Of a stretch of DNA of 64,000 bases, positions 2,898 through 63,532 are shown piece by piece (within the stretch, counting starts at the first letter, position 1; every line of letters starts with the position of its first letter). Source of the DNA: a virus. The position numbers and the translations under genes are program-made. Location: positions 10,404-74,403 of the IMG/VR virus record IMGVR_UViG_3300049827_000271; one strand, 5' to 3'. Below the pieces are notes generated by a model, which worked only from the letters and a program-made list of their open reading frames with translations, was not told where the DNA came from and did no database searches.

Positions 2898-5800
2898 TTA
2901 GCGCACTCCCGGAAGTCTGGCAACCGCACTCCGGCTCCTCCTCGCGGGGAGCCGGATTTTTTGCGTACCCGTCCGGCGTAATTTCGGCATTCTCACCGAG
3001 CGCACATGGGCCGCAGCCGCCGGACGGCGCGTGGGAATTCTGACCGACGACCGGCGTGAGGCGGGCATGGACATAGATGGCGTTGCGGAACGTCCAACGC
3101 CAGCCCTTGGCGCCGGCACGGAGACGCGGCCCACCGATGGGGCGCGCACGCCAAAGCTTGGACCAGCCGACGATCCGGCGCTGAGCGAAGGCAGGCGCAC
3201 TCCGCCAGCGTGCGGGCGCGGCAGTCCGCGGGCGCCGCCAAACGACATGCCTCCGCCCGTACCGCCCATGCGTCCCAGTCCGGTCGAAGTTTTTTCCTCC
3301 GACGGTTCCATGCTTGGAATAGAGGCTGATCCACCTCCCCCGCCTCCGGCAGAGCCGCGTTCCTGCCTGACAAATTCACGCGCTTGATGCCCGGTGGACT
3401 CGGCATAGGTGTTAAACGCCTCCTCCGCCTTCATCACCTCCGCGCGCTGGTCCGAGGACATCCGGCCCAAGATCGTCCCCCGCTCCTCCAAGGTGGGCGC
3501 TCTGCCCAGCACGGCCTGCCACGGATTACGTGACATAACCGAGGTGTCGAATGATTTTGCGGCGGCGTCATACTCGATGTTCCGCTTCTCCATGATCTTC
3601 TTGATCCCCCGTTCGCGCGCGTCCAGCATCCCCGTGGTATTCCCCAGCATCATCCAGTTCACCGCGTCCTGCGCCTCTGCCGATGTGATGGACGGACGGT
3701 AAGTTCCTCCGACTTGGGTGCGCTTGTCGATGTCCTGGCTGAATCTGTCGATGTTGGCTCGGGCATTCGAGTTCTCCACCATTCCTGCCTGTAGATCAGT
3801 GTGATTCAGGATCAGCTTGCTGTTCGGAACCCAACGTGATACCAGCCTGGCCATCTCCTGTGAGATGTCTCCGCCTTGGTAAAGCGTGCGCCATGCGCGC
3901 GGGATGTCATTGGCCATCTCCACCGCGAACAGGTTGATCCCGGTTCCGCCAAGGCCGCGGGACGGCTTGCTCACATCGAGTGCGCTGTTCAGGATTCCGG
4001 ACGACAATGGCAGGACGCTGCCGGCCATCAACATCATATACTTGAAGGCGTCCTCTGGATTCTCCGCATCCCACGCGCGGGGCGTCCGGTTGCGCGAACC
4101 ATAGACATACTCCGACAACCACGCGGCCATTGGCACAATCGCCAGACCGCCCAGCACGGAGGCGGTCAGCAGGTAGTCCGCAAACTTGGCCCCCGCTTTG
4201 ATTCCTGCCGCGCCGCGATTGCCTTTCGTGAAGATAGCGGACGTGCGCAGAATGTCCTCGTTCTGCCACAGCACCCAGTTCATCAGCGTCAGCGTGGACC
4301 GGCCCAAGCGGTTGCGCTGCGATAGGGTGGGGCGGTTGCTGAATCCGGATTTGCTCCGGGCTTGGGCCAGATCAAAGATGTATCGGTTCTCCTCCTCCTT
4401 GGTGAACAGGTTCTCCAATCCCGGATCGGCGGCGCGTTTGGAGCGCGCGTAGTAATCAAGGAAAGCGCGGTCGATGTTGATGTCACACCCCTGCATTCGC
4501 TTGCGGAATTGCAGTGCCTCATCCGGCTTGGCCCCGCGGCCCAACAATTCCGCCGGGGTCAGCACGGTTGTCTGCGGGTCCATTGGCAAACCCAGCGCCT
4601 CGCGGGCAGCCAGAACCTCGCGGGCGCGCATGGTCATGTCTTTGATGCGTCCATGCGCCTCCGAAACCGTGGCCAGCATGAGCAGGTTTTCCGAGTGCTT
4701 CATGCTCGTCAGTCCAACCCCTTGCAGGACATGCCAAGCTCCACGACCAACAGCAGTTGATGCCCTCCACAACCCTTTTGCAGATGCCAGGCGCAGGCTT
4801 GGATCAGCCTGCTGGTCCAAGATTCCTCCGCTGGCGAACCATGTGTCGATGTCGTTGCGCAGAAGTTCGCGCATGGTCCACTGGCTGGAGATGCCAAGCT
4901 CCTTGGCTCTACGCCATTCCAAGGCGGCCCGCGTGGCGGCACTGACAGACTTTCCGGTCATGGACGAAAGTTCATTCGCATTGGCCTCAATCGCCCGCTC
5001 AAAGTCGGGACCGAACTGCTTGCGCAGCGCGTCGTCACTCTTGATCACGGCGAGCAGCCCGCGCACCAACCGGCCTCCATGCTTGGTAAACTCCGCCGTG
5101 GCATACGCGGCCTTGCTCAACCCCCATACGCCAAACATCCACTTGCGGTGTTCGCCCATTGCCACTCCCTGCCGGTAGATGTCGATGGCTGGGGCCAGGA
5201 TATTCACCACTTGCGGTTTGATTGCGGCCAGGACCGCGGAGGCCGCCCTTCTGACCGCCCCGCCGAACGTTCGGGCCAACCTCGGCTCTAGCGGAGATTC
5301 CATCGACACGTAATCGCGGAGCGATTTCAGGTCCGAGTCGATCATCCGTTTGATCATCACGGCGTCCGCGTAATTCAGAAGACTCTCTCCATTCACCTGC
5401 TCTTCCCGCGTCTGCGCATTGGCCTTTTCCAAGCCCTTCGGAGATTGCGTCTCGTACCGGACATCCCAATCACCGATCTGCCTGCCCAAGCTGTCTCGCA
5501 GGTCGATCAGTGAATTTGCGTAGTTGACCAGATAGGTCTTGGTAATCCCCCAATCCAGCGCGTGGACAGAATTCTCGCTCGCCAGCGCATACTCATAGAA
5601 GTCGGGAGGCAGCGTGCCGGATTCGCGCGGTCTGGTCATAAACGAGCCTGCGCCCATGACCTCTGTGATCGGCCTCTCCCCCGGCTTGACCGATGGTGAT
5701 TCCAGTGGAAGCTCCCCCCTGGCCCCACGCAATAACTCATGCTCCAATCGTGATTTTACCTCATCGCGGGTCATCCAGTCCTTAGGGTCCGGGCGCGTCC

Positions 5801-8800
5801 GCACCTCGTCCACAATGGCGTCCAGGAGTCCGACGTAATTGGATGGCTCCGGCCTGCCGGCGTCGAATTGCCGGGCCAGGCTCAGGTATTCCATCACCAG
5901 CGGGGAACGCATGGCCATCCGGTAATGCTCGTGCTTGAACCCCCAGAGATGCGATAGCACACGATCCAGATGCTTCTCGATCACGGGCGCAAGCTGGCCA
6001 TTTTTGGCGGCGAGCGTTTGCAGGCTGAGCGCGTAATCGTTGGCTTCCGGGTTGATCCGTCTGGGCAACATGCCGCTCGTCAATTCCAGCGCCGGACGTT
6101 GCACGGTAATGCCGCCAATCTTCTCGGTGATCAATACTTCCGGGCGTCCGAACTTTTTCAGTTCCCGGCCCACCCCGGCCTTGGCCTTGTACAAGGCAAG
6201 CTCGGCCTGGACGGCGGCCATGTCCTCCGGAAGCACGGTGATACCTCGGTGGGCTTTTCCAACCGTGAGCGGCTGCCCGTGCGGATATGCCATGCTGTGG
6301 AGGATGGCGTTGCCAATCTGGTCCTCCCATTCCTGCGGGGAACGGAAGCCGTGGGCGCGCATGGCCTTGATCGTGGCTTTACGATTGCGCGTGGTCACAT
6401 TGCGCGACCCCGCCTTGCCACTGACGGCAGCGGTTTGTAATTGCTCAATAACCAAGTCCACGTCCCTGGCCGCGTTTGCCGCTTTCAACCCAAGCATGTT
6501 CCGCCCCAGCCACGGCGCGATCTCGCGCGTTTGTCCAAAGAGTTCCACCAAGTATCCTGGCAGCCATTTGGCAATACGCGAGCTTCCCTGTTCCGTCGCC
6601 AAAGCTTGGTGGGTCAGCCGCTCTTCCAATTCCTGCGCCCTCTCCCGGTAAAACGAGGCCCGCATAGGATCGCTCTCCGGGTTGTCCGCGTACTCACGAA
6701 ACCAGCGGGCGGCCTTGCGCGCGTTGTCCAAGTCCGCCTTCATCCCGGACTTGTCCCATCCCCCCGGCAGTGAAACGGTATCCTGCTGGCCCTTGGGCTG
6801 GTTTGGATTCTCCAAGATGCGGACACCTTCCAAGGTGTAGTCGGCTCCGCCCAGATTGGAGGTAATGCGACCTTTGTTAAATTCAGGATCGCTCTGCATC
6901 TGCCAAAACCCGAGCTCGGACTGGGCGCGCTGGTAGTTGCGCCAGAATTCCGTGCCCGGACTGAGCATGTTCGTCTTCAGAAAAGCCGCCGCGTCCTCAT
7001 GGGCCTTCAGCTTGTCTTGCAGCCTGACCGTTTCCTTGCTGGGAGCGCCCGCGCGAATCTGCTGCATCTGCTGCCAGAACGGCTGACTCTGGGACAGGAT
7101 GTATTTGACTCCAGCCGCAACATCGGTCCCCGTCTTGAATTTGTTGGCCAGCGCCCAAGCATCCCATCGGTTCACCAAGTCCGCCGTGGTGGACGGCCAG
7201 GTGGAGGCGTTCAATGTGTCAATGAATGCTCCGACCGTTTCCATGACCGTGTGTGATTTTGTCATGCCGTTCAGAATATCCAGCATGTGCTGCGCTTGGA
7301 TGGATGCCGGAGTCGGGCTGTTGGCGGCGGCGTTGACTACGTGTTGCAGGGCGGCCCTCTCTGAATCGCGCACATTGCGCACCCATGATCCGCCGTCCTT
7401 CGCGCGGTCGCTGGCGATGCTGTCACGAACCTTGCGAGTGTAATAGTCGATCTTGTCCGGGAGCTTGATCTGAGCAAAGTCCACCGCCAGCGCGGCGTTG
7501 GTCAGGAAGCTCTTCATTGACACGTTAAACACGTTTGGATTATCCGCCCCAAGAGCCGCGTTGCGCGCCTTTTCCACAATGTCCACGCCATGTGGGAGCG
7601 GCCTGCCGCCTGAGTTCAGGTAGGCGTTGTCAATCTCGCTTCGAGCCAGCGCGTGCGTTTCATGCAGGTACTTCATTCCGCGCAGGATGGACTTTACAGG
7701 GTCCGGCAATGCGTCGTAGAGCGGCTTGAGATACGCCATTGGCTCAATGGACAGCCAGGTGTCAACGCGCGACTCATACTTCTCGTTCTCGGTCCTGAAC
7801 GGATCGGTCATGGATTGCTGCTTCCACTGTCCGGGCGTGCGCGCCGCCTGTCGTGTAATCACATCGCCCGCCTGTTCCGGTCTGGTGTCTTGCACACGCA
7901 ACTCCGCCAGCTTCTCAGAGACAGCGCGGGCCGCCGCCCGTTCCGCCTTGCCCCGTGTCATCTGCTGGCCGGAGAACATGTCCATGACCCGGCTTACCAG
8001 CTTGCCAAACCAACTGCGCCCCTTCCATGCCTGGACCAGCGTGTCCACCCCGCGTGTGTCCAACTCCGCGCGATCCCCTGTCGTGTATCCTCTCTCGGCC
8101 ATGTCCGCCTTGATCTGGTCGATCTCTTCTGGCTTCAGCGTCTTCAACTCTTCGGCCAAACCCCCAAACTCCGTCACCGCATGGGCCGCCTCATGCTCCA
8201 GCGCGCGTGCCACGCTCTCCGCATCCGGCAGGTTCTTGGCGTTCAGCCTGACCTCCAGCACCTTTCCCGTCTTCGCGTCGATGTCCACCTGCGCGGACCA
8301 CGGCTCGTCGCTCTCTACGATCTTGATCAGTTCGGGAGATTTTCCACCGAAGACCTTGGCAGCCTCGGAGGCCACAAGATCAATCCCCATGCCTCGGCCA
8401 ATATCAGCGTCGGGAGCGATGGAATGACGAGTCACCAGACCGCCCGGCTTCATGCCAAGCCGTTCCGCCGTCTGCCGCACAGTGGCCGGCATGGTTCCCA
8501 CCACCTTCTCTCCATTGGGACCAACCCAAGTCTTGCCGAAAGGAATCTGCTCCGGGAGCGGGGGTGCCTGCGAGGCGAGCCATCGCTCGTACGCTGATAC
8601 CGCTTTCTGCTGTGGCTTCGTTTCCGCCGTCACGGGAACGGACGGCTCCGATTCTTTTCCAGCCAGTGCCAACTCCAAATTCCGCTTGGCCCGATTGAAC
8701 GCGATCAAGCTGTCGCCCGTGCGCGTCTCCTTCCACACCCGCTGCGTGCTCTCTACATCGTTACGGAGCTTGCTAAGTCGCTGCTGTTCGGTTGGGACGT

Positions 8801-45724: not shown

Positions 45725-47110
45725 ATGAATCCAACCTCGACATCTCTTGTCCGTGGAGGCTCCCAGATGGGGGTCGCCGGACTGCGCGCCACACTCAACG
45801 ATCCCAACGTGCAAAATCGCATGAGGGAAGTGCTGCGCGATAAAGCGCCCGCCTTCTGCTCGTCGCTGATCACGATCTCCAACGACTACAAGTTCCAGAA
45901 TGTGGAGCCGCACTCCATCCTGGGATCGGCCATGATCGCGGCCACGCTGGACCTCCCTATCGAGAAATCGCTCGGCTTTGCCCACATCGTTCCCTACGGG
46001 AGCAAGGCCCAATTCCAGATCGGGGCCAAAGGGCTGGTGCAACTGGCCCTCCGTTCCGGCCAGTACAAGAAGATGAACGCTTTTTGCGTCAATCGCGACG
46101 CCTTTGGCGGATACGACGAAGTGGGCGACCCCGTCATCCTCTGGGACAAGCTGGATGAAACCGAGGAAATCGTGGGCTATGCGTTTGCCTGGACGCTTGT
46201 GACCGGATTCACCAAGATCGTCTATTGGACGAAGGAAAAGGTGGAGCAGCACGCGGCCAAGTATTCCCAAGCCTACCGCTACGGAAAACAGAATCCGTCC
46301 AAGGCCGACTCCCCGTGGTTCACCGCCTTTGACCAGATGGCGCTCAAGACGGTCATCAAATCCGGGATCACCCATTGGGGGATCATGTCCGTCCAGTTGC
46401 AGACCGCGGTTCGCATGGACAACGCGGCGGTCGCCGACATTGATGCCCCTCCTGAGTATATCGACAACACAAATGGGGTCCATCAGATCAAACAGGCGAC
46501 CGTTGATTCAGCCGTGCTCAACCCTGCTGGGAACCCGGAAGATGATCAAGTTCCAATGGTGGAAGTGGCGGTCAGCCCGGAAGTCGGATATGCGCCTGCC
46601 GCACCTCCGCCTAGCACGCCTCCTCCGCCTCCAGTTGCACCGCAACCAAAAGTGGTGCCCATGCCTGCTACCAAACCGCAACCAGCACCCGTCACTCCCA
46701 CGCCCGTTCCCGTGGCGTCCCCGCCTCTCGCTCGTCCAATGGGCCGTCCTGCCAATCGCAAGCCAGAGCCTGCGCCCACGCCTGCGGTGGCAGCGCCTGC
46801 ACCCGCCCCTGAAGCGCCTTCGGAACATGAACAGGCTGCGCCATCCCAGCCTGTCTCATCCACTCCAACGCCGCCAGAAGAGCCAGCCTCGTCCCCGCAA
46901 GAAGAGTTGGCCGCCGTCTTTGAGAGGTGTGACTTCGACGACTACAAGGGCTACTTCCAGACCACTGATTTCGCTGTCTTCAACCAGATCAAAGAGGCCA
47001 AGACATGGACTGAACTCCCCACAGAACATTGCAAAGACGTGCTCTCGCGTCCACCTATCAAGGGGAAGACGCTGGTGATGAAGATTATGTCGGTCATCTC
47101 TCCTGCCTGA
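45725..47110 (+). CDS. recT: RecT/Bet family single-strand annealing protein with a Pro-rich extension
   Basis: LGFAHIVPY..KAQFQIGAKGLVQLALRSGQY, SPW...FDQMALKTVIK. Confidence 0.92.
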   Translation: MNPTSTSLVRGGSQMGVAGLRATLNDPNVQNRMREVLRDKAPAFCSSLITISNDYKFQNVEPHSILGSAMIAATLDLPIEKSLGFAHIVPYGSKAQFQIGAKGLVQLALRSGQYKKMNAFCVNRDAFGGYDEVGDPVILWDKLDETEEIVGYAFAWTLVTGFTKIVYWTKEKVEQHAAKYSQAYRYGKQNPSKADSPWFTAFDQMALKTVIKSGITHWGIMSVQLQTAVRMDNAAVADIDAPPEYIDNTNGVHQIKQATVDSAVLNPAGNPEDDQVPMVEVAVSPEVGYAPAAPPPSTPPPPPVAPQPKVVPMPATKPQPAPVTPTPVPVASPPLARPMGRPANRKPEPAPTPAVAAPAPAPEAPSEHEQAAPSQPVSSTPTPPEEPASSPQEELAAVFERCDFDDYKGYFQTTDFAVFNQIKEAKTWTELPTEHCKDVLSRPPIKGKTLVMKIMSVISPA

Positions 47111-47111
47111 T

Positions 47112-47306
47112 ATGCGCGTCATCATTCTATATGGTTCCGAGAAGAAGCTGACCGGCTCCCATAAACGGGTTACATCCAAGAAGCATCCGGCCTACTATGT
47201 GCGCGCGGAGTTTGCTCCAAAAACATGCACTCAAGATGTGCTCGCGCTAGATCGTGCAAAGGCGCTTCCGGGAGAAGTATTGCTGAACACGGAGGAGATC
47301 GCATAA
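47112..47306 (+). CDS. hypothetical protein
   Basis: 64 aa; TAATG overlap with the next gene. Confidence 0.5.
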   Translation: MRVIILYGSEKKLTGSHKRVTSKKHPAYYVRAEFAPKTCTQDVLALDRAKALPGEVLLNTEEIA

Positions 47307-48238
47307 TGGACTTCGACACCAGCAATCTGAATCAATACGTAGGTGCCCACGCGGGCTGGCCATTCGCGGACTACGCCAAGTTTCCGGCGGTAAACGCCAG
47401 CCTGCTAAAGCGGCTGGCCGATACCAACCCGTTGAAAACCCAGCACTCGCTGACCGAACCGGAAGAGGAAGAAGTGCCCGAATACTTCATCATCGGCACC
47501 TGCGTTCACCAGCTTGTGCTGGAACCGGATCGTCCATTGCCAGCAATGGCCGTTCCACCCAAGCAATATCCAGCCCCAGCCGATTGCTCGTTGGTCAAAC
47601 AAAAGAAGGTCGCCGCCGGGGACATGATCGACTGGTCTGGAAACGCGACCTATTGCAAACAATGGATTGCCGAGCAAAAGGCTGCGGGCAAGCTTGTGTT
47701 GAGCGAGCGCGCGTACGAGGCCATGCACGGGATGGCCCGCGCGATAGCCCGGCACAAGACGGCCCGGCGCTTCTTCGAGATGCGGGACGGCAGAAGCGAA
47801 CTCACGCTCGTCTGGCAGGACAGGCAGACCGGGCTGTATTGCAAGGCCCGCGCTGACTGGGTTCCGCCCGCGCCGTCCACAGACCTTCCGGACATCAAAA
47901 CCTCGCGGGATGCCAACCCGAAATTCTGGTCCAAAACCGCATTTGACCTCTTCTACCACATCCAGGCCGCGCACTATCTAATCGGCTGGAATACGCTGAA
48001 CGGACCAACGGATACCCGGTCGCAATGGCCCATCATCTGCGTAGAGAGCGAAGCCCCCTACGACGTAGTGGTGTTTCACCCGGAACCAGAGTGGATAAAT
48101 GACGGGGCAGAAATGCGCCGCCGCCTTCTGGAGTTGTGGGCCGACTGCATCATGCACAACACCTTCCCAGGTTACGCAGAAGACCCAATGCCGCTAGTCC
48201 TCCCAGATTGGCGCAAGCGCGAGAAAGGAATGCTGTGA
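47306..48238 (+). CDS. PD-(D/E)XK exonuclease, RecE / exonuclease VIII C-terminal-like
   Basis: NASLLK, GTCVHQLVLEP, CKARADW, DIKTS, YHIQAAHY. Confidence 0.9.
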   Translation: MDFDTSNLNQYVGAHAGWPFADYAKFPAVNASLLKRLADTNPLKTQHSLTEPEEEEVPEYFIIGTCVHQLVLEPDRPLPAMAVPPKQYPAPADCSLVKQKKVAAGDMIDWSGNATYCKQWIAEQKAAGKLVLSERAYEAMHGMARAIARHKTARRFFEMRDGRSELTLVWQDRQTGLYCKARADWVPPAPSTDLPDIKTSRDANPKFWSKTAFDLFYHIQAAHYLIGWNTLNGPTDTRSQWPIICVESEAPYDVVVFHPEPEWINDGAEMRRRLLELWADCIMHNTFPGYAEDPMPLVLPDWRKREKGML

Positions 48239-51896: not shown

Positions 51897-52038
51897 CAAC
51901 TACAACTCACGCCAAGAGACAAACGAACACATCCTGCGCGTGCGCGAACTCGGTTGGTCGGCCGCCCAAGCTCAGCGACGGCAGCCGACAGCGCCGCCGC
52001 GAGCGCAAAAGAAAGGAAAAAATCACGATGATCTCTGA
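51823..52038 (+). CDS. cassette-borne hypothetical protein
   Basis: Both termini are encoded by attC-like arms. Confidence 0.5.
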   Translation: MTTESPKPSDEAKAGALLPPAMGSTNYNSRQETNEHILRVRELGWSAAQAQRRQPTAPPRAQKKGKNHDDL

Positions 52039-52080
52039 ACGTAAAGCGTGGCTGCCGTTCGCTGAAGTGCATAGTTCGGC
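51957..52080 (-). other. attC-like site with a mutated R' core
   Basis: GCCGAAC-TATGC-ACT(T)CAGCGA(A)CGGCAGCC ... GGCTGCCGTCGCTGAGC-TTGGGC-GGCCGAC. Confidence 0.75.
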
Positions 52081-52309
52081 GACCTGCTGCCTGTGCAACT
52101 GGACAAACGTAAACCTCTTAAACCTAGGAGAACCCGGAGCACCGCGATGGACGTGCCACGGCTGCTGCAAGCGAATGCTCGATACACTGGAGAAACTCCG
52201 AGAAGGAGACTTCGCTGGCACGCCAATCAATCGCGGCAGTTCTGCGATGCTGCTCATAGATGAAACGCTGTCGTCTAACAAAGAACAGGCCGCACTGCGT
52301 ACACCATGA
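52028..52309 (+). CDS. cassette-borne small Zn-finger-like protein
   Basis: CCLC...CHGC; SD AAAGGA and ATG lie inside the attC loop. Confidence 0.6.
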   Translation: MISERKAWLPFAEVHSSATCCLCNWTNVNLLNLGEPGAPRWTCHGCCKRMLDTLEKLREGDFAGTPINRGSSAMLLIDETLSSNKEQAALRTP

Positions 52310-55722: not shown

Positions 55723-56190
55723 ATGTGCGACCATAATTCTCCTGCTGAACCCATCTCCGCGGCCTGCCCGGCGCCCTCTGACAGCACCGCTGGAGACTTC
55801 AAACTCCCCCTGGCAAACGCGCCGTGTTTCTTGGCCGGGGTGAATCAGACCGCGCCGCTCCGTCCGGGGGACGAAGAGAGTAGTGGGGCACACTCCACTC
55901 TTGCCCCCGGCGGCGCGGCGCAAGCTGAAAGAATCGAATGGATTGACTTGCTCATCGTTCCGCAGGACGTGGACCGCGTGCGTATTTCCGAGATGATCCG
56001 TGAAGTTGGAGGAGTGCTCTCATGGCATGATGAAGACATGCGCGCCGGATTGCCGCTCAATGCTGCGGTGGGCGCTTTTCCAGGAAGAGCCGATGATGTT
56101 CGCAGCACGATGCTGAAGCTACGCGGACACAACGACCCAAGCTCTGCCACATGGCGGGGCGGAAAGGACTCCAAATGCAAAGTGAACTGA
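55723..56190 (+). CDS. hypothetical protein whose C-terminus is encoded by an attC-like arm
   Basis: Ends ...GHN-DPSSATWRGGKDSKCKVN inside the 56127-56227 site. Confidence 0.5.
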   Translation: MCDHNSPAEPISAACPAPSDSTAGDFKLPLANAPCFLAGVNQTAPLRPGDEESSGAHSTLAPGGAAQAERIEWIDLLIVPQDVDRVRISEMIREVGGVLSWHDEDMRAGLPLNAAVGAFPGRADDVRSTMLKLRGHNDPSSATWRGGKDSKCKVN

Positions 56191-56227
56191 ATCGCCCCGC
56201 CATGTCGGCAGCAGCGCATGGTTTGGC
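56127..56227 (-). other. attC-like recombination site
   Basis: GCCAAAC-CATGC-GCT(G)CTGCC(G)ACATGGCGGGGCG ... CGCCCCGCCATGTGGCAGAGC-TTGGGTC-GTTGTGT. Confidence 0.85.
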
Positions 56228-56588
56228 AAAAAACCCACATGACTCAATGACGGCATGGGATAGAAGCTGGAAACCTCACCATCTTCCAATGTGGGCGAGA
56301 AAATCTATCCGACTGGATGCGATAAAAAAAGACAACTGGCGTGCCTATCCAGGATGGCCAGTCAACAACCATGCCGAGGCACACCTTCCGCACGAACTGT
56401 TTGACCATTGGGGCAGCGTAAAGCGCGGTAAAACACGCGCACTCATAGCGCAACCCTATGGCGAACATGATGCACTCGCGAAATCATTCGCATCCGAACT
56501 CGGATGGTCAGTCAAATCTTTCACGCCCGGCCCGTGGAATGATGGAACGTGGTGCTACGAGTTTTTGCCGAACAATGCGCAATCCTAA
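56175..56588 (+). CDS. cassette-borne hypothetical protein
   Basis: SD AAAGGA and ATG in the attC loop; FDHWG...QPY...PW motif; ends LPN-NAQS. Confidence 0.7.
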   Translation: MQSELNRPAMSAAAHGLAKNPHDSMTAWDRSWKPHHLPMWARKSIRLDAIKKDNWRAYPGWPVNNHAEAHLPHELFDHWGSVKRGKTRALIAQPYGEHDALAKSFASELGWSVKSFTPGPWNDGTWCYEFLPNNAQS

Positions 56589-56600
56589 ACCGAGTACGCC

Positions 56601-57104
56601 ATGCACAAGATTGTTTCCCGCCACATCCTTTGGCCATGCCTCTTGCTTCTAACGGCGTGCCACCATCCTGTTGGTCATCCCGCTTCCCCTCCGCTGCCTG
56701 CGCGTTCCGTCCCGCGATCCGGTCTGCTTCCATTGCGGCCCTGGACCAACATCATCCAGGAGACGCTGGTGCCCGCCGAGTTACGATGGAGCCAGCAGGC
56801 GGCTCCGGCTTTCATCAACGGCCAGTGCGTGGAAAGTAATTCATGTCCAATCATGCTCACAGTAGGCCGTCTCCAGTGGTTCTCGGCCAGCACGGAGGGA
56901 GGCGAGGAGACGAACCGGCTGGCGGTCCTGGCCTGGCCTGATCCCGCGTCTCCGGACACCGCGGTTCTGAAGGTCACAACCGCTGTGCGCCGAACTGCCG
57001 CTGGGAGTGAAATCATTTCCCGGACGACCAACGCCGGGACGGACAGGATAACCCTGTTGTCAGCAACCAATCCAACTGGATTTTTTTTAATACTTAGACC
57101 GTAA
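56601..57104 (+). CDS. putative lipoprotein
   Basis: LLLLTA-C lipobox; TN motifs; ends ATNPTGFF. Confidence 0.55.
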   Translation: MHKIVSRHILWPCLLLLTACHHPVGHPASPPLPARSVPRSGLLPLRPWTNIIQETLVPAELRWSQQAAPAFINGQCVESNSCPIMLTVGRLQWFSASTEGGEETNRLAVLAWPDPASPDTAVLKVTTAVRRTAAGSEIISRTTNAGTDRITLLSATNPTGFFLILRP

Positions 57105-57105
57105 T

Positions 57106-57474
57106 ATGAAAATAGAACAACACATACAACTAGACCGATGGATCGCCGTGAATATCAACAAATGGCCGGAGCCGGAGTGGGTTTACGATGATGGGATTGA
57201 CTACAAGCACGGGACGCCGGGCAACAGCGTGCTGTGCCGCTATGCGCCGACCGAAAACCGCAGCGAGGCCCTGCATGTGCTGGAGAAGTGCGCAGAGCGA
57301 ATGAGCAAGCTGCATGATGATGATCGCTATATCGCCATTGGCTATGAGCGTCTGACTGGCAATTTTATTGTATGCGAGTCAGACGTGGCCAACGGCATTA
57401 GCGTGGATGGGGATACGCTTCCACTCGCCATCTGCCTGTTCGCCCGCCGGCTCTTTGAGAAAGGCGCGGAATGA
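57106..57474 (+). CDS. phage ABA-sandwich (BC1872-like) protein
   Basis: LDRWIA...W...PTENRSEALHVLEK...TLPLAICLFA. Confidence 0.65.
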   Translation: MKIEQHIQLDRWIAVNINKWPEPEWVYDDGIDYKHGTPGNSVLCRYAPTENRSEALHVLEKCAERMSKLHDDDRYIAIGYERLTGNFIVCESDVANGISVDGDTLPLAICLFARRLFEKGAE

Positions 57475-59371: not shown

Positions 59372-60037
59372 CTAGTTGGGCCACTTGGCGCACGTCGCAG
59401 CCAATTCGAGCAGGTAGTGCGCAAACGCGGGAGGTGTGGCGTTTGCCTCACGCTTTGAGAGTGTCGGTTTGTTTGCGGCCTTTCCGCGCTGGTCGTGGAA
59501 GCCGACTTGGTGCGAGCCGGTTGGCCGCTCCCATCGAGGTTGAAGTGGCGCATCCGTGCCGGAGCAGTAGAGCCACGTCCGCTTGTTCGCTCGATGGCCG
59601 TAGGCCGATTGCCAGACTTCGCAGACCAATCCTTGCTTCCATCGCGTTCATCCAGTTGCCGGACGCGGCAGGCCGTGCGCTGGCCATGCGTAGGTTTCTG
59701 CTGGATGTTCCAGCACACCGCCGCAGCGGTTCACGGTATCAAGCGCGAAGCGGAAGCATCCGCCATCGTTGCCCGGCTTGTTGTGTTCGCCGCCCCATCG
59801 CAGGTAGTTTATCTTCGCCATCTTTCCCCACAGTTGGCAGGGAGGATGCGCCACGACCGGCGCGTTGCCGGTGTAGGTCATCGCGTCACGCTCTGCATCG
59901 TAGCAGTCGCAGCCTAGCGACTTGTAGAGAGAGTCTTTCATCACAAACAACACGACGTGGCCCAACCATGCGCTGCTGCCAATGAGTGCCGCGTCGGGCA
60001 TCACTGTCGATTGAACGTCTTGGGTCGCGGCACTCAT
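59372..60037 (-). pseudogene. cassette-borne C5-cytosine methyltransferase-like gene with an in-frame TGA
   Basis: VAHPPC and VLEHP motifs; track ORFs 59648-60076 and 59372-59629 share a frame and are split by one TGA (59648-59650). Confidence 0.65.
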
Positions 60038-60058
60038 GGCAGAGCTTGGTCGTTCGGT
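59960..60058 (+). other. attC-like recombination site 1
   Basis: GCCCAAC-CATGC-GCT(G)CTGCC(A)ATGAGTGCCGCG ... CGCGGCACTCATGGCAGAGC-TTGGTC-GTTCGGT. Confidence 0.88.
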
Positions 60059-60312
60059 GGACCACACTTGTCGCATCGGACTTCGCCGTTATAGCGGAGG
60101 ATGTGCTCAAAGGAGTGCGTCTCCTTTTCTTCCGGCGTCACCCAGATTGTCCACGCTTCGCCATTGCACAGTTTGCAGTTCAGAGGGCCGTATAGTTCTC
60201 CAAATGTCACCGGGACATGCGTGCTTGAGCGTGGTTGCATCAACGAGGCCACCGAACAACCGGATGCAGACAACCCCGCCATTGCGCCTTGTTCGAGTTC
60301 AAGAGTCTTCAT
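60034..60312 (-). CDS. cassette-borne Zn-ribbon-like protein
   Basis: CKLC...CDKC; starts in attC2 and stops in attC1. Confidence 0.6.
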   Translation of the reverse strand: MKTLELEQGAMAGLSASGCSVASLMQPRSSTHVPVTFGELYGPLNCKLCNGEAWTIWVTPEEKETHSFEHILRYNGEVRCDKCGPPNDQALP

Positions 60313-60342
60313 GGGGGGGGTGTCTGATCCGGAGCGTTAGGC
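60251..60342 (+). other. attC-like recombination site 2
   Basis: ACCGAAC-AACCG-GAT(G)CAGACA(A)CCCC ... GGGGTGTCTGATC-CGGAGC-GTTAGGC. Confidence 0.88.
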
Positions 60343-60636
60343 ATCTAGGCCATCTTTCTTCATGGCGGCATCAACCGCATCGCGGTATGTGTCGCCCCAG
60401 CACGTTGTCCCGTCGCTGGCCATCACGAGGAATGGCGCTTCCTTCACGTTCTCGCGCTGGTGGGTTTCTTCGAGCCAGCACAGGTAGTCGAAGCAGTCAG
60501 CTTTATACATCATCTCCTGCGTCATCATCGCGCACAGGCGGGTTGCTAGTTGGTCGTCGGAGAGCTTTGACGCCGCCGAGCCACTGCATGGAGCAGAACC
60601 CGGCGGAGCGTCAGGCTGTTGAGAGTCACTTGGCAT
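60337..60636 (-). CDS. cassette-borne hypothetical protein
   Basis: SD AAAGGA and ATG in the attC3 loop; C-terminal TYRDAVDAAM motif; TAA stop lies in the attC2 core. Confidence 0.65.
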   Translation of the reverse strand: MPSDSQQPDAPPGSAPCSGSAASKLSDDQLATRLCAMMTQEMMYKADCFDYLCWLEETHQRENVKEAPFLVMASDGTTCWGDTYRDAVDAAMKKDGLDA

Positions 60637-60686
60637 TGGTATCCTTTCGGGTTGTCGCGCCGGGTCGCTCATGCAGGCCGTTAGGA
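60575..60686 (+). other. attC-like recombination site 3
   Basis: GCCGAGC-CACTG-CAT(G)GAGC(A)GA(A)CCCGGCG ... CGCCGGGTCGCTCATG-CAGGCC-GTTAGGA. Confidence 0.8.
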
Positions 60687-61195
60687 GAATAGAGCGCGCT
60701 CACCTTGCTTGGTGGGTGGACGCCTTTACCGAAGTCCAGCGCGAGAGCGACGAGCCACGGCAGATTGCCGATGGTCTTTTCTTCGCCGCCCGCTATCGCC
60801 TTCGATGACACCACTTCGATTTGTTCGGACTCCATTGATGTCAGTTTGTGCGGCTCGCCGATGGTGTAGAAGAACTCGACCTCAAAACTTCCGCCGTCGT
60901 TATTTGTTCCTGACATTGAGCAGAAGTGCGTCCAGTCGGAAGGCCACAGTCCGGCTTCTTCGCCGAACTCTCGGCACATGGCGTTGATTGCTTCTTCGCC
61001 GGCTTCGACCTTGCCGCCGATGCCGTTGAGCAGCCCGGCTTGCCACGCTGGTTTGTTTTTGCGGATTAACGCGACGTTCGACATGGCCACATCGAACATG
61101 AAGCCGACCACATATTTGGTTTGGCCCGATTCTCCTAGCAAGTCGCTGGAGGCAACGGCGGGTTTGCGTTGCTCGATTGTCTTTGGTGCATTCAT
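60626..61195 (-). CDS. cassette-borne NUDIX hydrolase
   Basis: Nudix box GGKVEAGEEAINAMCREFGEEAGL. Confidence 0.92.
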   Translation of the reverse strand: MNAPKTIEQRKPAVASSDLLGESGQTKYVVGFMFDVAMSNVALIRKNKPAWQAGLLNGIGGKVEAGEEAINAMCREFGEEAGLWPSDWTHFCSMSGTNNDGGSFEVEFFYTIGEPHKLTSMESEQIEVVSSKAIAGGEEKTIGNLPWLVALALDFGKGVHPPSKVSALYSPNGLHERPGATTRKDTNAK

Positions 61196-61294: not shown

Positions 61295-61600
61295 TCATGG
61301 TTTCCTTTCCGCTCCACCGTTTCCGCCGGAGCGGGCAGGGGGAGCTTTATCGTTTGGCTTACTCCGCCGCCATCCAGCGGGGCCGCTTGATCCCCCCCTA
61401 TTTTTAGACCGATGCAGGAACGCCTCACACACTGTCAGCCGGATATAAACTTGCTCGCAGTCGAGGCATATTGCCCGCCTCCACACGCCTGGCGCGTCTG
61501 TGTATTTGTAGCTAGAACAGACCGGGCAACGTCCGTCCGTGGAAGCCAGCCTGCCCGACGGTTCCCGTCTGGCTGGAGCGGGTGAAGGTTTATGGCTCAT
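61295..61600 (-). CDS. small Zn-ribbon protein
   Basis: CPVC...CLDC; ends PN-DKAPP in an attC right-arm remnant. Confidence 0.5.
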   Translation of the reverse strand: MSHKPSPAPARREPSGRLASTDGRCPVCSSYKYTDAPGVWRRAICLDCEQVYIRLTVCEAFLHRSKNRGGSSGPAGWRRSKPNDKAPPARSGGNGGAERKP

Positions 61601-63423: not shown

Positions 63424-63532
63424 AGCGGAAAAGGCAGGCCGATGCACACTGCAAGGGAGGGTGGGGGCCCCTACCCCCAACCCTCCCTTGCATTGGCATG
63501 TGCTTTCGCTCGGCCTGCCGATCTTTTCCGCT
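63424..63532. repeat. long imperfect inverted repeat (~109 bp)
   Basis: AGCGGAAAAG-GCAGGCCGA...TGCAAGGGAGGGTGGGGG / CCCCCAACCCTCCCTTGCA...TCGGCCTGC...CTTTTCCGCT. Confidence 0.8.

Follow-up and report, generated by a model that had tools for sequence, protein, structure and literature searches.

An attC-bearing gene cassette in an uncultured freshwater phage, probably inserted at a secondary site near the end of a gene

The genome of an uncultured tailed phage from freshwater carries an integron-type cassette, composed of an attC site and one gene, that was most likely inserted in trans by an integron integrase (IntI) at a secondary site by the 3' end of an upstream gene, ORF 55723; we place the probability of this reading at roughly 0.8. 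The stretch of DNA analyzed here (the window; 64,000 nt) comprises bases 10404-74403 of a 74.4-kb IMG/VR virus record with a CheckV completeness estimate of 97%. The phage encodes a large terminase, a virion structural protein, RecT and an exonuclease VIII-like protein (both at 45725-48238), and a Toprim/AAA primase, and the cassette (cassette A) is located downstream of the primase within a series of small plus-strand genes. No integron integrase was found in the phage and no IntI remnant in the window; the lone tyrosine recombinase (1475-2641, 388 aa) was considered for this role and rejected, not being an integron integrase. With ORF 55723, the primase or the P0020 alignment as queries, no relatives of the phage were recovered among viral contigs, and no cassette-free relative was found in the searched collections.

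The cassette and its place in the phage genome

The attC-type recombination site of cassette A (site 1) occupies positions 56127-56227 with its top strand on the minus strand, as the preliminary description had proposed, and is confirmed as an attC-type hairpin with a folding energy of -25.6 kcal/mol (z -3.1; 0 of 200 shuffles folded as well). Read on the minus strand, its outer half consists of R'' GCCAAAC (56227-56221), the spacer CATGC and L'' GCTGCTGCC (56215-56207), which with its bulged base reads GCT(G)CTGCC and is followed by a further (G) before the stem. The variable stem is a perfect helix of 13 bp (56149-56161 / 56193-56205) closed by a loop of 31 nt, and the 3' part continues with L' GGCAGAGC (56148-56141), the spacer TTGGGTC and a hybrid R' GTTGTGT (56133-56127). 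The unpaired spacers thus measure 5-7 nt, the two bulged bases share one arm (the top-strand 5' arm), and R'' and R' each deviate at one position from RYYYAAC and GTTRRRY, respectively. A scan of site 1 against Rfam found no matching family, and terminator and promoter scans at the site found nothing.

Cassette A itself spans 440 nt on the plus strand (56133-56572), with the C of the left AA|C as its first base and the AA of the right AA|C as its last two, and contains the attC site followed by the gene body, with the gene on the bottom strand of attC. Its right junction is a lone core, GCCGAAC, present at 56567-56573 where it had been described, with the crossover at 56572|56573. In other genomes the equivalent of this AAC is the start of a complete attC (e.g., at 5342-5431 of viral contig L194), and the tails of proteins P0004 and P0010 read “LPN-DPSSAT,” i.e., the translation of the arm of another such site. 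The near-complementarity of the cassette ends over about 13 bp had been noted before and was borne out by their forming the longest inverted repeat of the region (56214-56232 versus 56562-56580; 19 nt, 89%), with a pairing of 13 bp that includes one wobble and one bulge. This is what one would expect of ends that complete the R stem when brought together in a circular cassette.

The cassette ORF (56175-56588, plus strand, 137 aa) starts at an ATG in the hairpin loop, has its first approximately 20 residues coded by the attC arm and a conserved internal Met at 56247, and borrows its last four residues and stop codon (56574-56588) from the target. Its 17 homologues share a conserved stretch, from about ...GKNGHAAM to ...WCYEFLPN, outside which their N-termini and tails are entirely different. 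The homologue on L194 shares 62% protein identity, and the DNA identity between the two loci is 62.8% between the core boxes compared to 27-34% outside. This restriction of conservation to the interval between the core boxes upholds the boundaries originally assigned to an integron-type cassette, and 56133-56572 is confirmed to behave as one such unit; the strand polarity originally assigned is likewise supported. An AF2 model of the cassette protein has a mean pLDDT of 83, with values below 50 for the attC-encoded residues 1-16. The protein has no match in Pfam or PHROG and no fold match in PDB or BFVD, and a single-protein search returned only one match of 9 residues that we attribute to chance. 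Distant homologues in other phages sit in ordinary contexts without sites. In two unrelated phage contexts, homologues lie directly downstream of a DNA cytosine methyltransferase (L198 4780-5380 and L194 4075-5393), a neighborhood that hints at a function tied to DNA modification or to countering host defense.

The upstream gene, ORF 55723 (55723-56190, plus strand, 155 aa), has a conserved body that ends at Asn137 (AAC at 56131-56133), and its last 18 residues and stop codon are read from the arm and loop of attC. The sole homologue of this gene, P0020 (73 aa), aligns to residues 67-137 and ends in ...TANN-P*, one codon past the junction Asn, so that the ancestral end of ORF 55723 suggested here is that of a single homologue. 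Deleting 56133-56572 in silico (440 nt) gives an ORF 55723 of 141 aa that ends in ...LRGHNNAQS*, reproducing the tail that the preliminary description had derived, and this tail and stop codon are those now used by the cassette ORF. The accompanying claim that excision restores an intact gene was overstated, since the conserved part is already intact and the deletion exchanges an 18-residue tail for one of 4 residues.

On the other side of the cassette, the right flank (56574-56600, plus strand) is presumed to be half of the target; it supplies the NAQS tail and stop codon and places 28 nt upstream of the next gene's ATG (56601). The target contains G|TT. The interval 56560-56630 was evaluated as a degenerate attC and rejected (fold z +0.91). 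Because the right flank has no hairpin, the window has no IntI remnant and P0020 ends one codon past the junction Asn, insertion at a secondary site (attG/SALIN-like) is the best reading of the position of the cassette within the phage. In the earlier claim of a non-disruptive secondary-site insertion, the sparing of the conserved body of ORF 55723 and the non-attC nature of the right flank therefore stand, while the secondary site as such is what we infer from these features. Contigs of two runs that cover the region contain neither an empty site nor a circular junction (contigs only); run X2 contains 56534-57332 in identical form and thus has the same right junction.

In the sequence of events that we propose, the folded bottom strand of attC would have been joined to a double-stranded secondary G|TT at the 3' end of ORF 55723 by an IntI that may have come from a related phage such as L194 or from an integron of a Verrucomicrobiota host. 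After insertion, the upstream gene would end in the attC loop and the cassette gene would inherit the old tail and stop codon, so that neither gene would be broken and both would belong to one translationally linked transcription unit. Precise excision at both AA|C points would return ...LRGHNNAQS*.

The cassette had also been called a solo cassette, and this holds only partly: it is isolated, but the same phage has at least two further clear attC sites at 59.4-60.3 kb. Cassette B with attC site 2 (59376-60052, top strand on the plus strand; R'' at 59960-59966, GTT at 60052-60054) carries a phrog_12600-like gene on the minus strand and begins with G|TTGGGCCAC, which is complementary to its own R'' region GTGGCCCAAC at 10 of 10 positions. 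Both outer arms of site 2 (59960-60058, plus strand) match those of site 1 exactly, which goes beyond the resemblance that had been reported. Cassette C with attC site 3 (60053-60336, plus strand; site at 60251-60342) belongs to a different sequence type, carries a gene of 92 aa on the minus strand (60312-60034) and begins with TTCGGTGG, complementary to its R'' CCACCGAAC; site 3 folds with -23.4 kcal/mol (z -3.3) and, like sites 1 and 2, has two bulges, which are located on the corresponding arm. Cassettes B and C (59376-60342) are adjacent to each other in a convergent block of minus-strand genes, in opposite orientation to cassette A and with their attC sites 3.7 and approximately 4.1 kb away from it. 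With at least two attC sites and no IntI in a bona fide phage, they constitute an integrase-less attC cluster (CALIN).

Several weaker elements lie in the same part of the window. The phrog_12600-like gene (59372-59941, minus strand) is split into two frames (59941-59648 and 59629-59372) by a frameshift or sequencing error. A candidate second isolated cassette (51947-52279) extends from an AA|C at 51948|51949 to a lone core TCGTCTAAC with the crossover at 52278|52279, and comprises long-loop hairpin arms (51970-51986 / 52050-52067), a loop ATG at 52028 and R'' GTTCGGC at 52074-52080. A degenerate attC-like element with a weak fold (60585-60687) occupies a gene junction upstream of a 111-aa gene and a NUDIX gene. 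The candidates near 52.0 kb (z -0.8) and 60.6 kb have the right boxes but fold no better than shuffles. A short remnant reading AAC GATAAAGCTC, also with a weak fold, is found at approximately 61330-61350. A near-perfect palindrome of about 40 nt (63441-63500), intergenic and upstream of a divergent gene of 457 aa, has weak miRNA-like Rfam matches on both strands.

The presence of several other attC sites in this phage is compatible with a different history, which we regard as unlikely: cassette A may be all that is left of a small array, or of an attI-type dock, after decay of the neighboring sites. The right flank would then represent a degenerate att site, and ORF 55723 itself may at one time have been carried in a cassette. 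The missing fold of the right flank (z +0.91) speaks against such a history, yet the 7 bases past the right junction, AATGCGC, resemble the spacer and L'' start of site 1, CATGCGC. This likeness is not predicted by the simple model of insertion and may reflect either a target that mimics an IntI-binding half-site or a decayed att site. Similarly, ATTG|TT is the top-strand sequence of the terminal junctions in the window, in L194 and in both L004 and L005 (viral contigs), and ORF 55723 ends in CACAAC like box GGCACAAC of an L005 cassette; however, no box complementary to GGACACAAC exists upstream of ORF 55723, inspection by eye reveals no hairpin at 55.4-56.0 kb, and a decayed array would also have to account for a window with no trace of IntI.

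A family of attC sites linked to integron integrases

Site 1 belongs to a family of sites (family 1) whose exact arm pattern recurs in about 35 distinct sites elsewhere, in metagenomes and in metagenome-assembled genomes (MAGs) of Verrucomicrobiota, compared to some 3-4 matches that we estimate to be expected by chance. Two copies of the exact outer arms are present in the window phage; others are found on viral contigs L004 and L005, in 3 genomes among 185,579 species, all three of them Verrucomicrobiota MAGs, and in about 33 contigs of freshwater, sediment and soil metagenomes. The AAC and GTT triplets were not part of the scanned pattern; nonetheless, the left arm is immediately preceded by AAC in every true family member, a GTT follows the right arm at a distance of 4-7 nt in nearly all of them, and sequence similarity within the family ends exactly at these triplets. 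In the inner stem, 5 of 14 predicted pairs covary with compensatory double changes across 34 sites (e.g., CG in 17 and UA in 16). Given this recurrence and covariation, site 1 is not a product of chance.

The anatomy of the family is that of attC, i.e., R''/L''/L'/R' boxes, unpaired spacers, one-sided bulges and a variable center, with consensus boxes GCCNAAC / GTTNGGC. All family members, as well as sites 1, 2 and 3 of the window, have two extrahelical bases that are always on the same arm, and the bulged bases are C/C versus the classical G/T. Generic attC scanners based on minimum free energy missed most of these sites because the closing AAC/GTT pairs are absent from the minimum-energy fold. 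A relaxed site pattern gave mostly chance matches, and only those in L009, L010 and L065 have the look of distant members.

The link to a genuine integrase is provided by two relatives. Viral contig L194 (IMGVR_UViG_3300043394_000263) has a complete integron with at least four attC sites at 2900-7353, and L193 is near-identical in this region. Among its cassette genes are those for a C5 cytosine methyltransferase and a GNAT-like acetyltransferase, together with the homologue of the window cassette gene. Roughly 1 kb downstream of this homologue, L194 encodes an integron integrase of 322 aa (TIGR02249, 353 bits; cut-off 265). The homologue lies between two attC sites, of which the preceding one is a different attC with the ATG in its loop and the next one begins at the equivalent AAC; the flanking boxes are complementary at 13 of 13 positions. 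On L152, an IntI homologue (43% identical) is followed by an attI-like spacer of about 100 bp and a first cassette that ends in a family-1 attC; this cassette begins with G|TTCGGCTCT, complementary at 10 of 10 positions to the R'' region AGAGCCGAAC of that attC. The association with IntI and attI is thus absent in the window phage and found beside the homologous cassette in L194 and beside a family-1 site in L152. Of the three MAGs in which family-1 sites occur, two also encode an IntI above the cut-off.

Evidence bearing on mobility comes from L004 and L005, whose flanks are identical over 3000 of 3000 positions on the left and 2999 of 3000 on the right and which differ by exactly one unit of 929 bp (L004 3604-3693 versus L005 7162-8180). 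This unit consists of two cassettes at a 99-nt site ending in ...GTCGTT, and in L005 the cassette start is complementary to its own R'' box at 12 of 12 bases. The terminal junction of L004 and L005, CCGAAC|AATCATTAGACACAC, resembles the attI-side junction TCTAAC|AATCATTACACAC of L194, and no intI follows it in L004 or L005.

The 929-bp difference, lying between two identical 99-nt repeats, could also have been produced by homologous recombination, and the window phage encodes RecT and an exonuclease VIII-like protein that could drive such exchange. One may therefore ask whether the hairpins, with start and stop codons in their loops, are regulatory or translational-coupling modules (terminator- or attenuator-like) that are spread, and at which genes are shuffled, by this RecT/RecE-like system through homologous recombination on the conserved arms, with no site-specific recombination. 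A precedent is available in the mobile regulatory cassettes of T4-type phages known as PeSLs (promoter-early stem-loops), reportedly described by Arbiol and colleagues in 2010. PeSLs carry promoters and are thought to act by homologous recombination, and they share with the present sites the repetition of stem-loops at accessory gene junctions of phages, the shuffling of genes and a role in expression. Unlike PeSLs, the present sites have attC anatomy, a fixed crossover and a link to IntI. Shuffling by homologous recombination leaves unexplained the complementarity of 10-13 bp between the far end of a cassette and its own R'' box, the end of homology exactly at AAC and GTT, the one-sided bulges and the adjacency to true IntI and attI, and neither a terminator-like feature nor an Rfam match was found at site 1. 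We therefore consider it very improbable.

Gene orientation and reading frames across the junctions

Genes of this cassette type lie on the bottom strand of attC and are thus reversed relative to classical cassettes. This conclusion follows from four observations on polarity together with the lack of a GGACACAAC-complementary box upstream of ORF 55723. The bulges of site 1 fall on the gene-sense strand's 3' arm, the arm that carries them in a canonical bottom strand. On L152 and L194, the start of intI abuts attI, followed by the gene body and then attC, which is the canonical order. Isolated or terminal cassettes in the window, L004/L005, L152 and L194 always read site, gene and lone box. Finally, a gene keeps the site that lies 5' of it across loci that differ in the other flank (window/L140/L142, L127/L163 and L149/L172/L174). 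In the window, L152, L194 and L005, the ORFs are found on the bottom strand and read towards attI and intI, and none of them has the classical layout, in which a promoterless ORF precedes its attC on the top strand and is expressed from Pc at attI/intI, away from attI. On L194 all cassette genes are co-directional with intI and read towards it, with the TAA of the last ORF immediately before the intI ATG. In a Verrucomicrobiales MAG (L199 2640-2935), a chromosomal IntI (411 bits) is accompanied by a first cassette gene in classical orientation, so the reversed layout is not general to integrons of this phylum.

The least probable of the readings considered is the opposite polarity, with site 1 as the attC of ORF 55723 and the downstream gene as a cassette reduced to its R'' box GCCGAAC: box complementarity around a gene body inside an array fits both polarities equally, and classical cassette ORFs often end within their own attC, but the bulged bases would be on the wrong arm, the unit beside attI and intI in L152 and L194 is a gene body plus lone box with attC distal, and neither the constant 5'-side sites nor the absence of the upstream box agrees with it.

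With genes in this orientation, the junctions follow a consistent coding rule. At 26 of 29 informative family-1 junctions the crossover AAC is in frame as Asn of the upstream ORF, compared to a chance expectation of one third, and the upstream ORFs stop 2-19 codons past the AAC, inside the site. Cassette genes end in ...(P)N with no stop of their own and take tail and stop codon from the next site or the target, and the hairpin loops of the family carry the ATG of the next gene. It follows from this rule that insertion at an in-frame AAC is non-disruptive, as in the window. Cassettes of the family would thus bring a ribosome-binding region and ATG in the hairpin loop, a 3' arm that would code for a dispensable N-terminal peptide, and a gene whose frame, with the crossover AAC read as Asn, would continue into whatever comes next.

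A broader interpretation, to which we give even odds, is that a lineage of freshwater phages shares an operon-adapted variant of the integron in which reversed, stop-less cassettes can be dropped into an in-frame AAC near a gene end or into an array, with all frames kept open, short tails swapped and translational linkage. Phages of the L193/L194 type would then serve both as targets and as vectors.

Relation to known systems and meaning for phage biology

Integrons are best known from bacteria, where they serve as platforms for the spread of resistance genes; parts of integrons have been reported in phages only recently, and demonstrations of insertion outside att sites so far come mainly from the laboratory. 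The present sites share with attC sites (59-base elements) the imperfect palindrome R''-L''...L'-R' with unpaired spacers and one-sided extrahelical bases, a variable and covarying central stem, a crossover at G|TT and cassette ends that restore a paired R box upon circularization, besides the adjacency to true IntI and attI in relatives L194 and L152. They differ from classical cassettes in that the genes are on the bottom strand of attC and transcribed towards attI and intI, the start codon is in the cassette's own attC loop, and there is no stop codon, the AAC being read onward in frame; moreover, the L boxes (GCTGCTGCC / GGCAGAGC) are not core-like and the window phage has no intI.

Secondary-site insertion is a published route that gives rise to SALINs at attG sites (Loot et al., bioRxiv 10.1101/2022.09.11.507474). 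Like a SALIN, cassette A is a single attC cassette away from intI and attI with an unstructured right flank, its target shares only G|TT (GWT) with att sites and forms no hairpin, it would be expressed from resident transcription, and excision is predicted at the insertion point. Unlike SALINs, it resides in a phage genome rather than a bacterial chromosome, is in frame at the last codons of a gene so that two ORFs swap tails, has other attC sites at a distance of 3.7-4.1 kb and comes with no observed empty site.

Qi et al. (2023, PMC9892861) described integron parts in 21 phages whose hosts are cultured or known; in two of the virulent phages all cassettes run in one direction, a layout that the authors call the most typical of bacterial arrays (PMC9892861). 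As in those phage integrons and CALINs, attC sites and cassettes are phage-borne and mostly lack an integrase, and DNA methyltransferase cassettes recur, with a C5-methyltransferase cassette on L194. The present phages differ from them in being uncultured freshwater phages, in a site family shared with Verrucomicrobiota MAGs, in their reversed and stop-less ORFs and in the complete integron on viral contigs L193 and L194. Publications thus exist both on phage-borne integron components (PMC9892861) and on insertion at secondary sites (bioRxiv 10.1101/2022.09.11.507474). What looks new is the layout, with genes on the bottom strand of attC, the start codon in their own loop, no stop codon and the AAC read in frame; the phage contigs with a complete integron are a further variant feature.

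The locus described here is a natural and well-delimited candidate for secondary-site insertion in a phage. The family around it points to a different mode of cassette expression that would depend on resident read-through instead of an integron promoter, with start and stop codons built into the recombination hairpin. If confirmed, this would represent a site-specific recombination site molded by coding constraints and a route by which phages may gain accessory genes with their operons unbroken, and uncultured freshwater phages would become a new group in which complete integrons are carried by phages.
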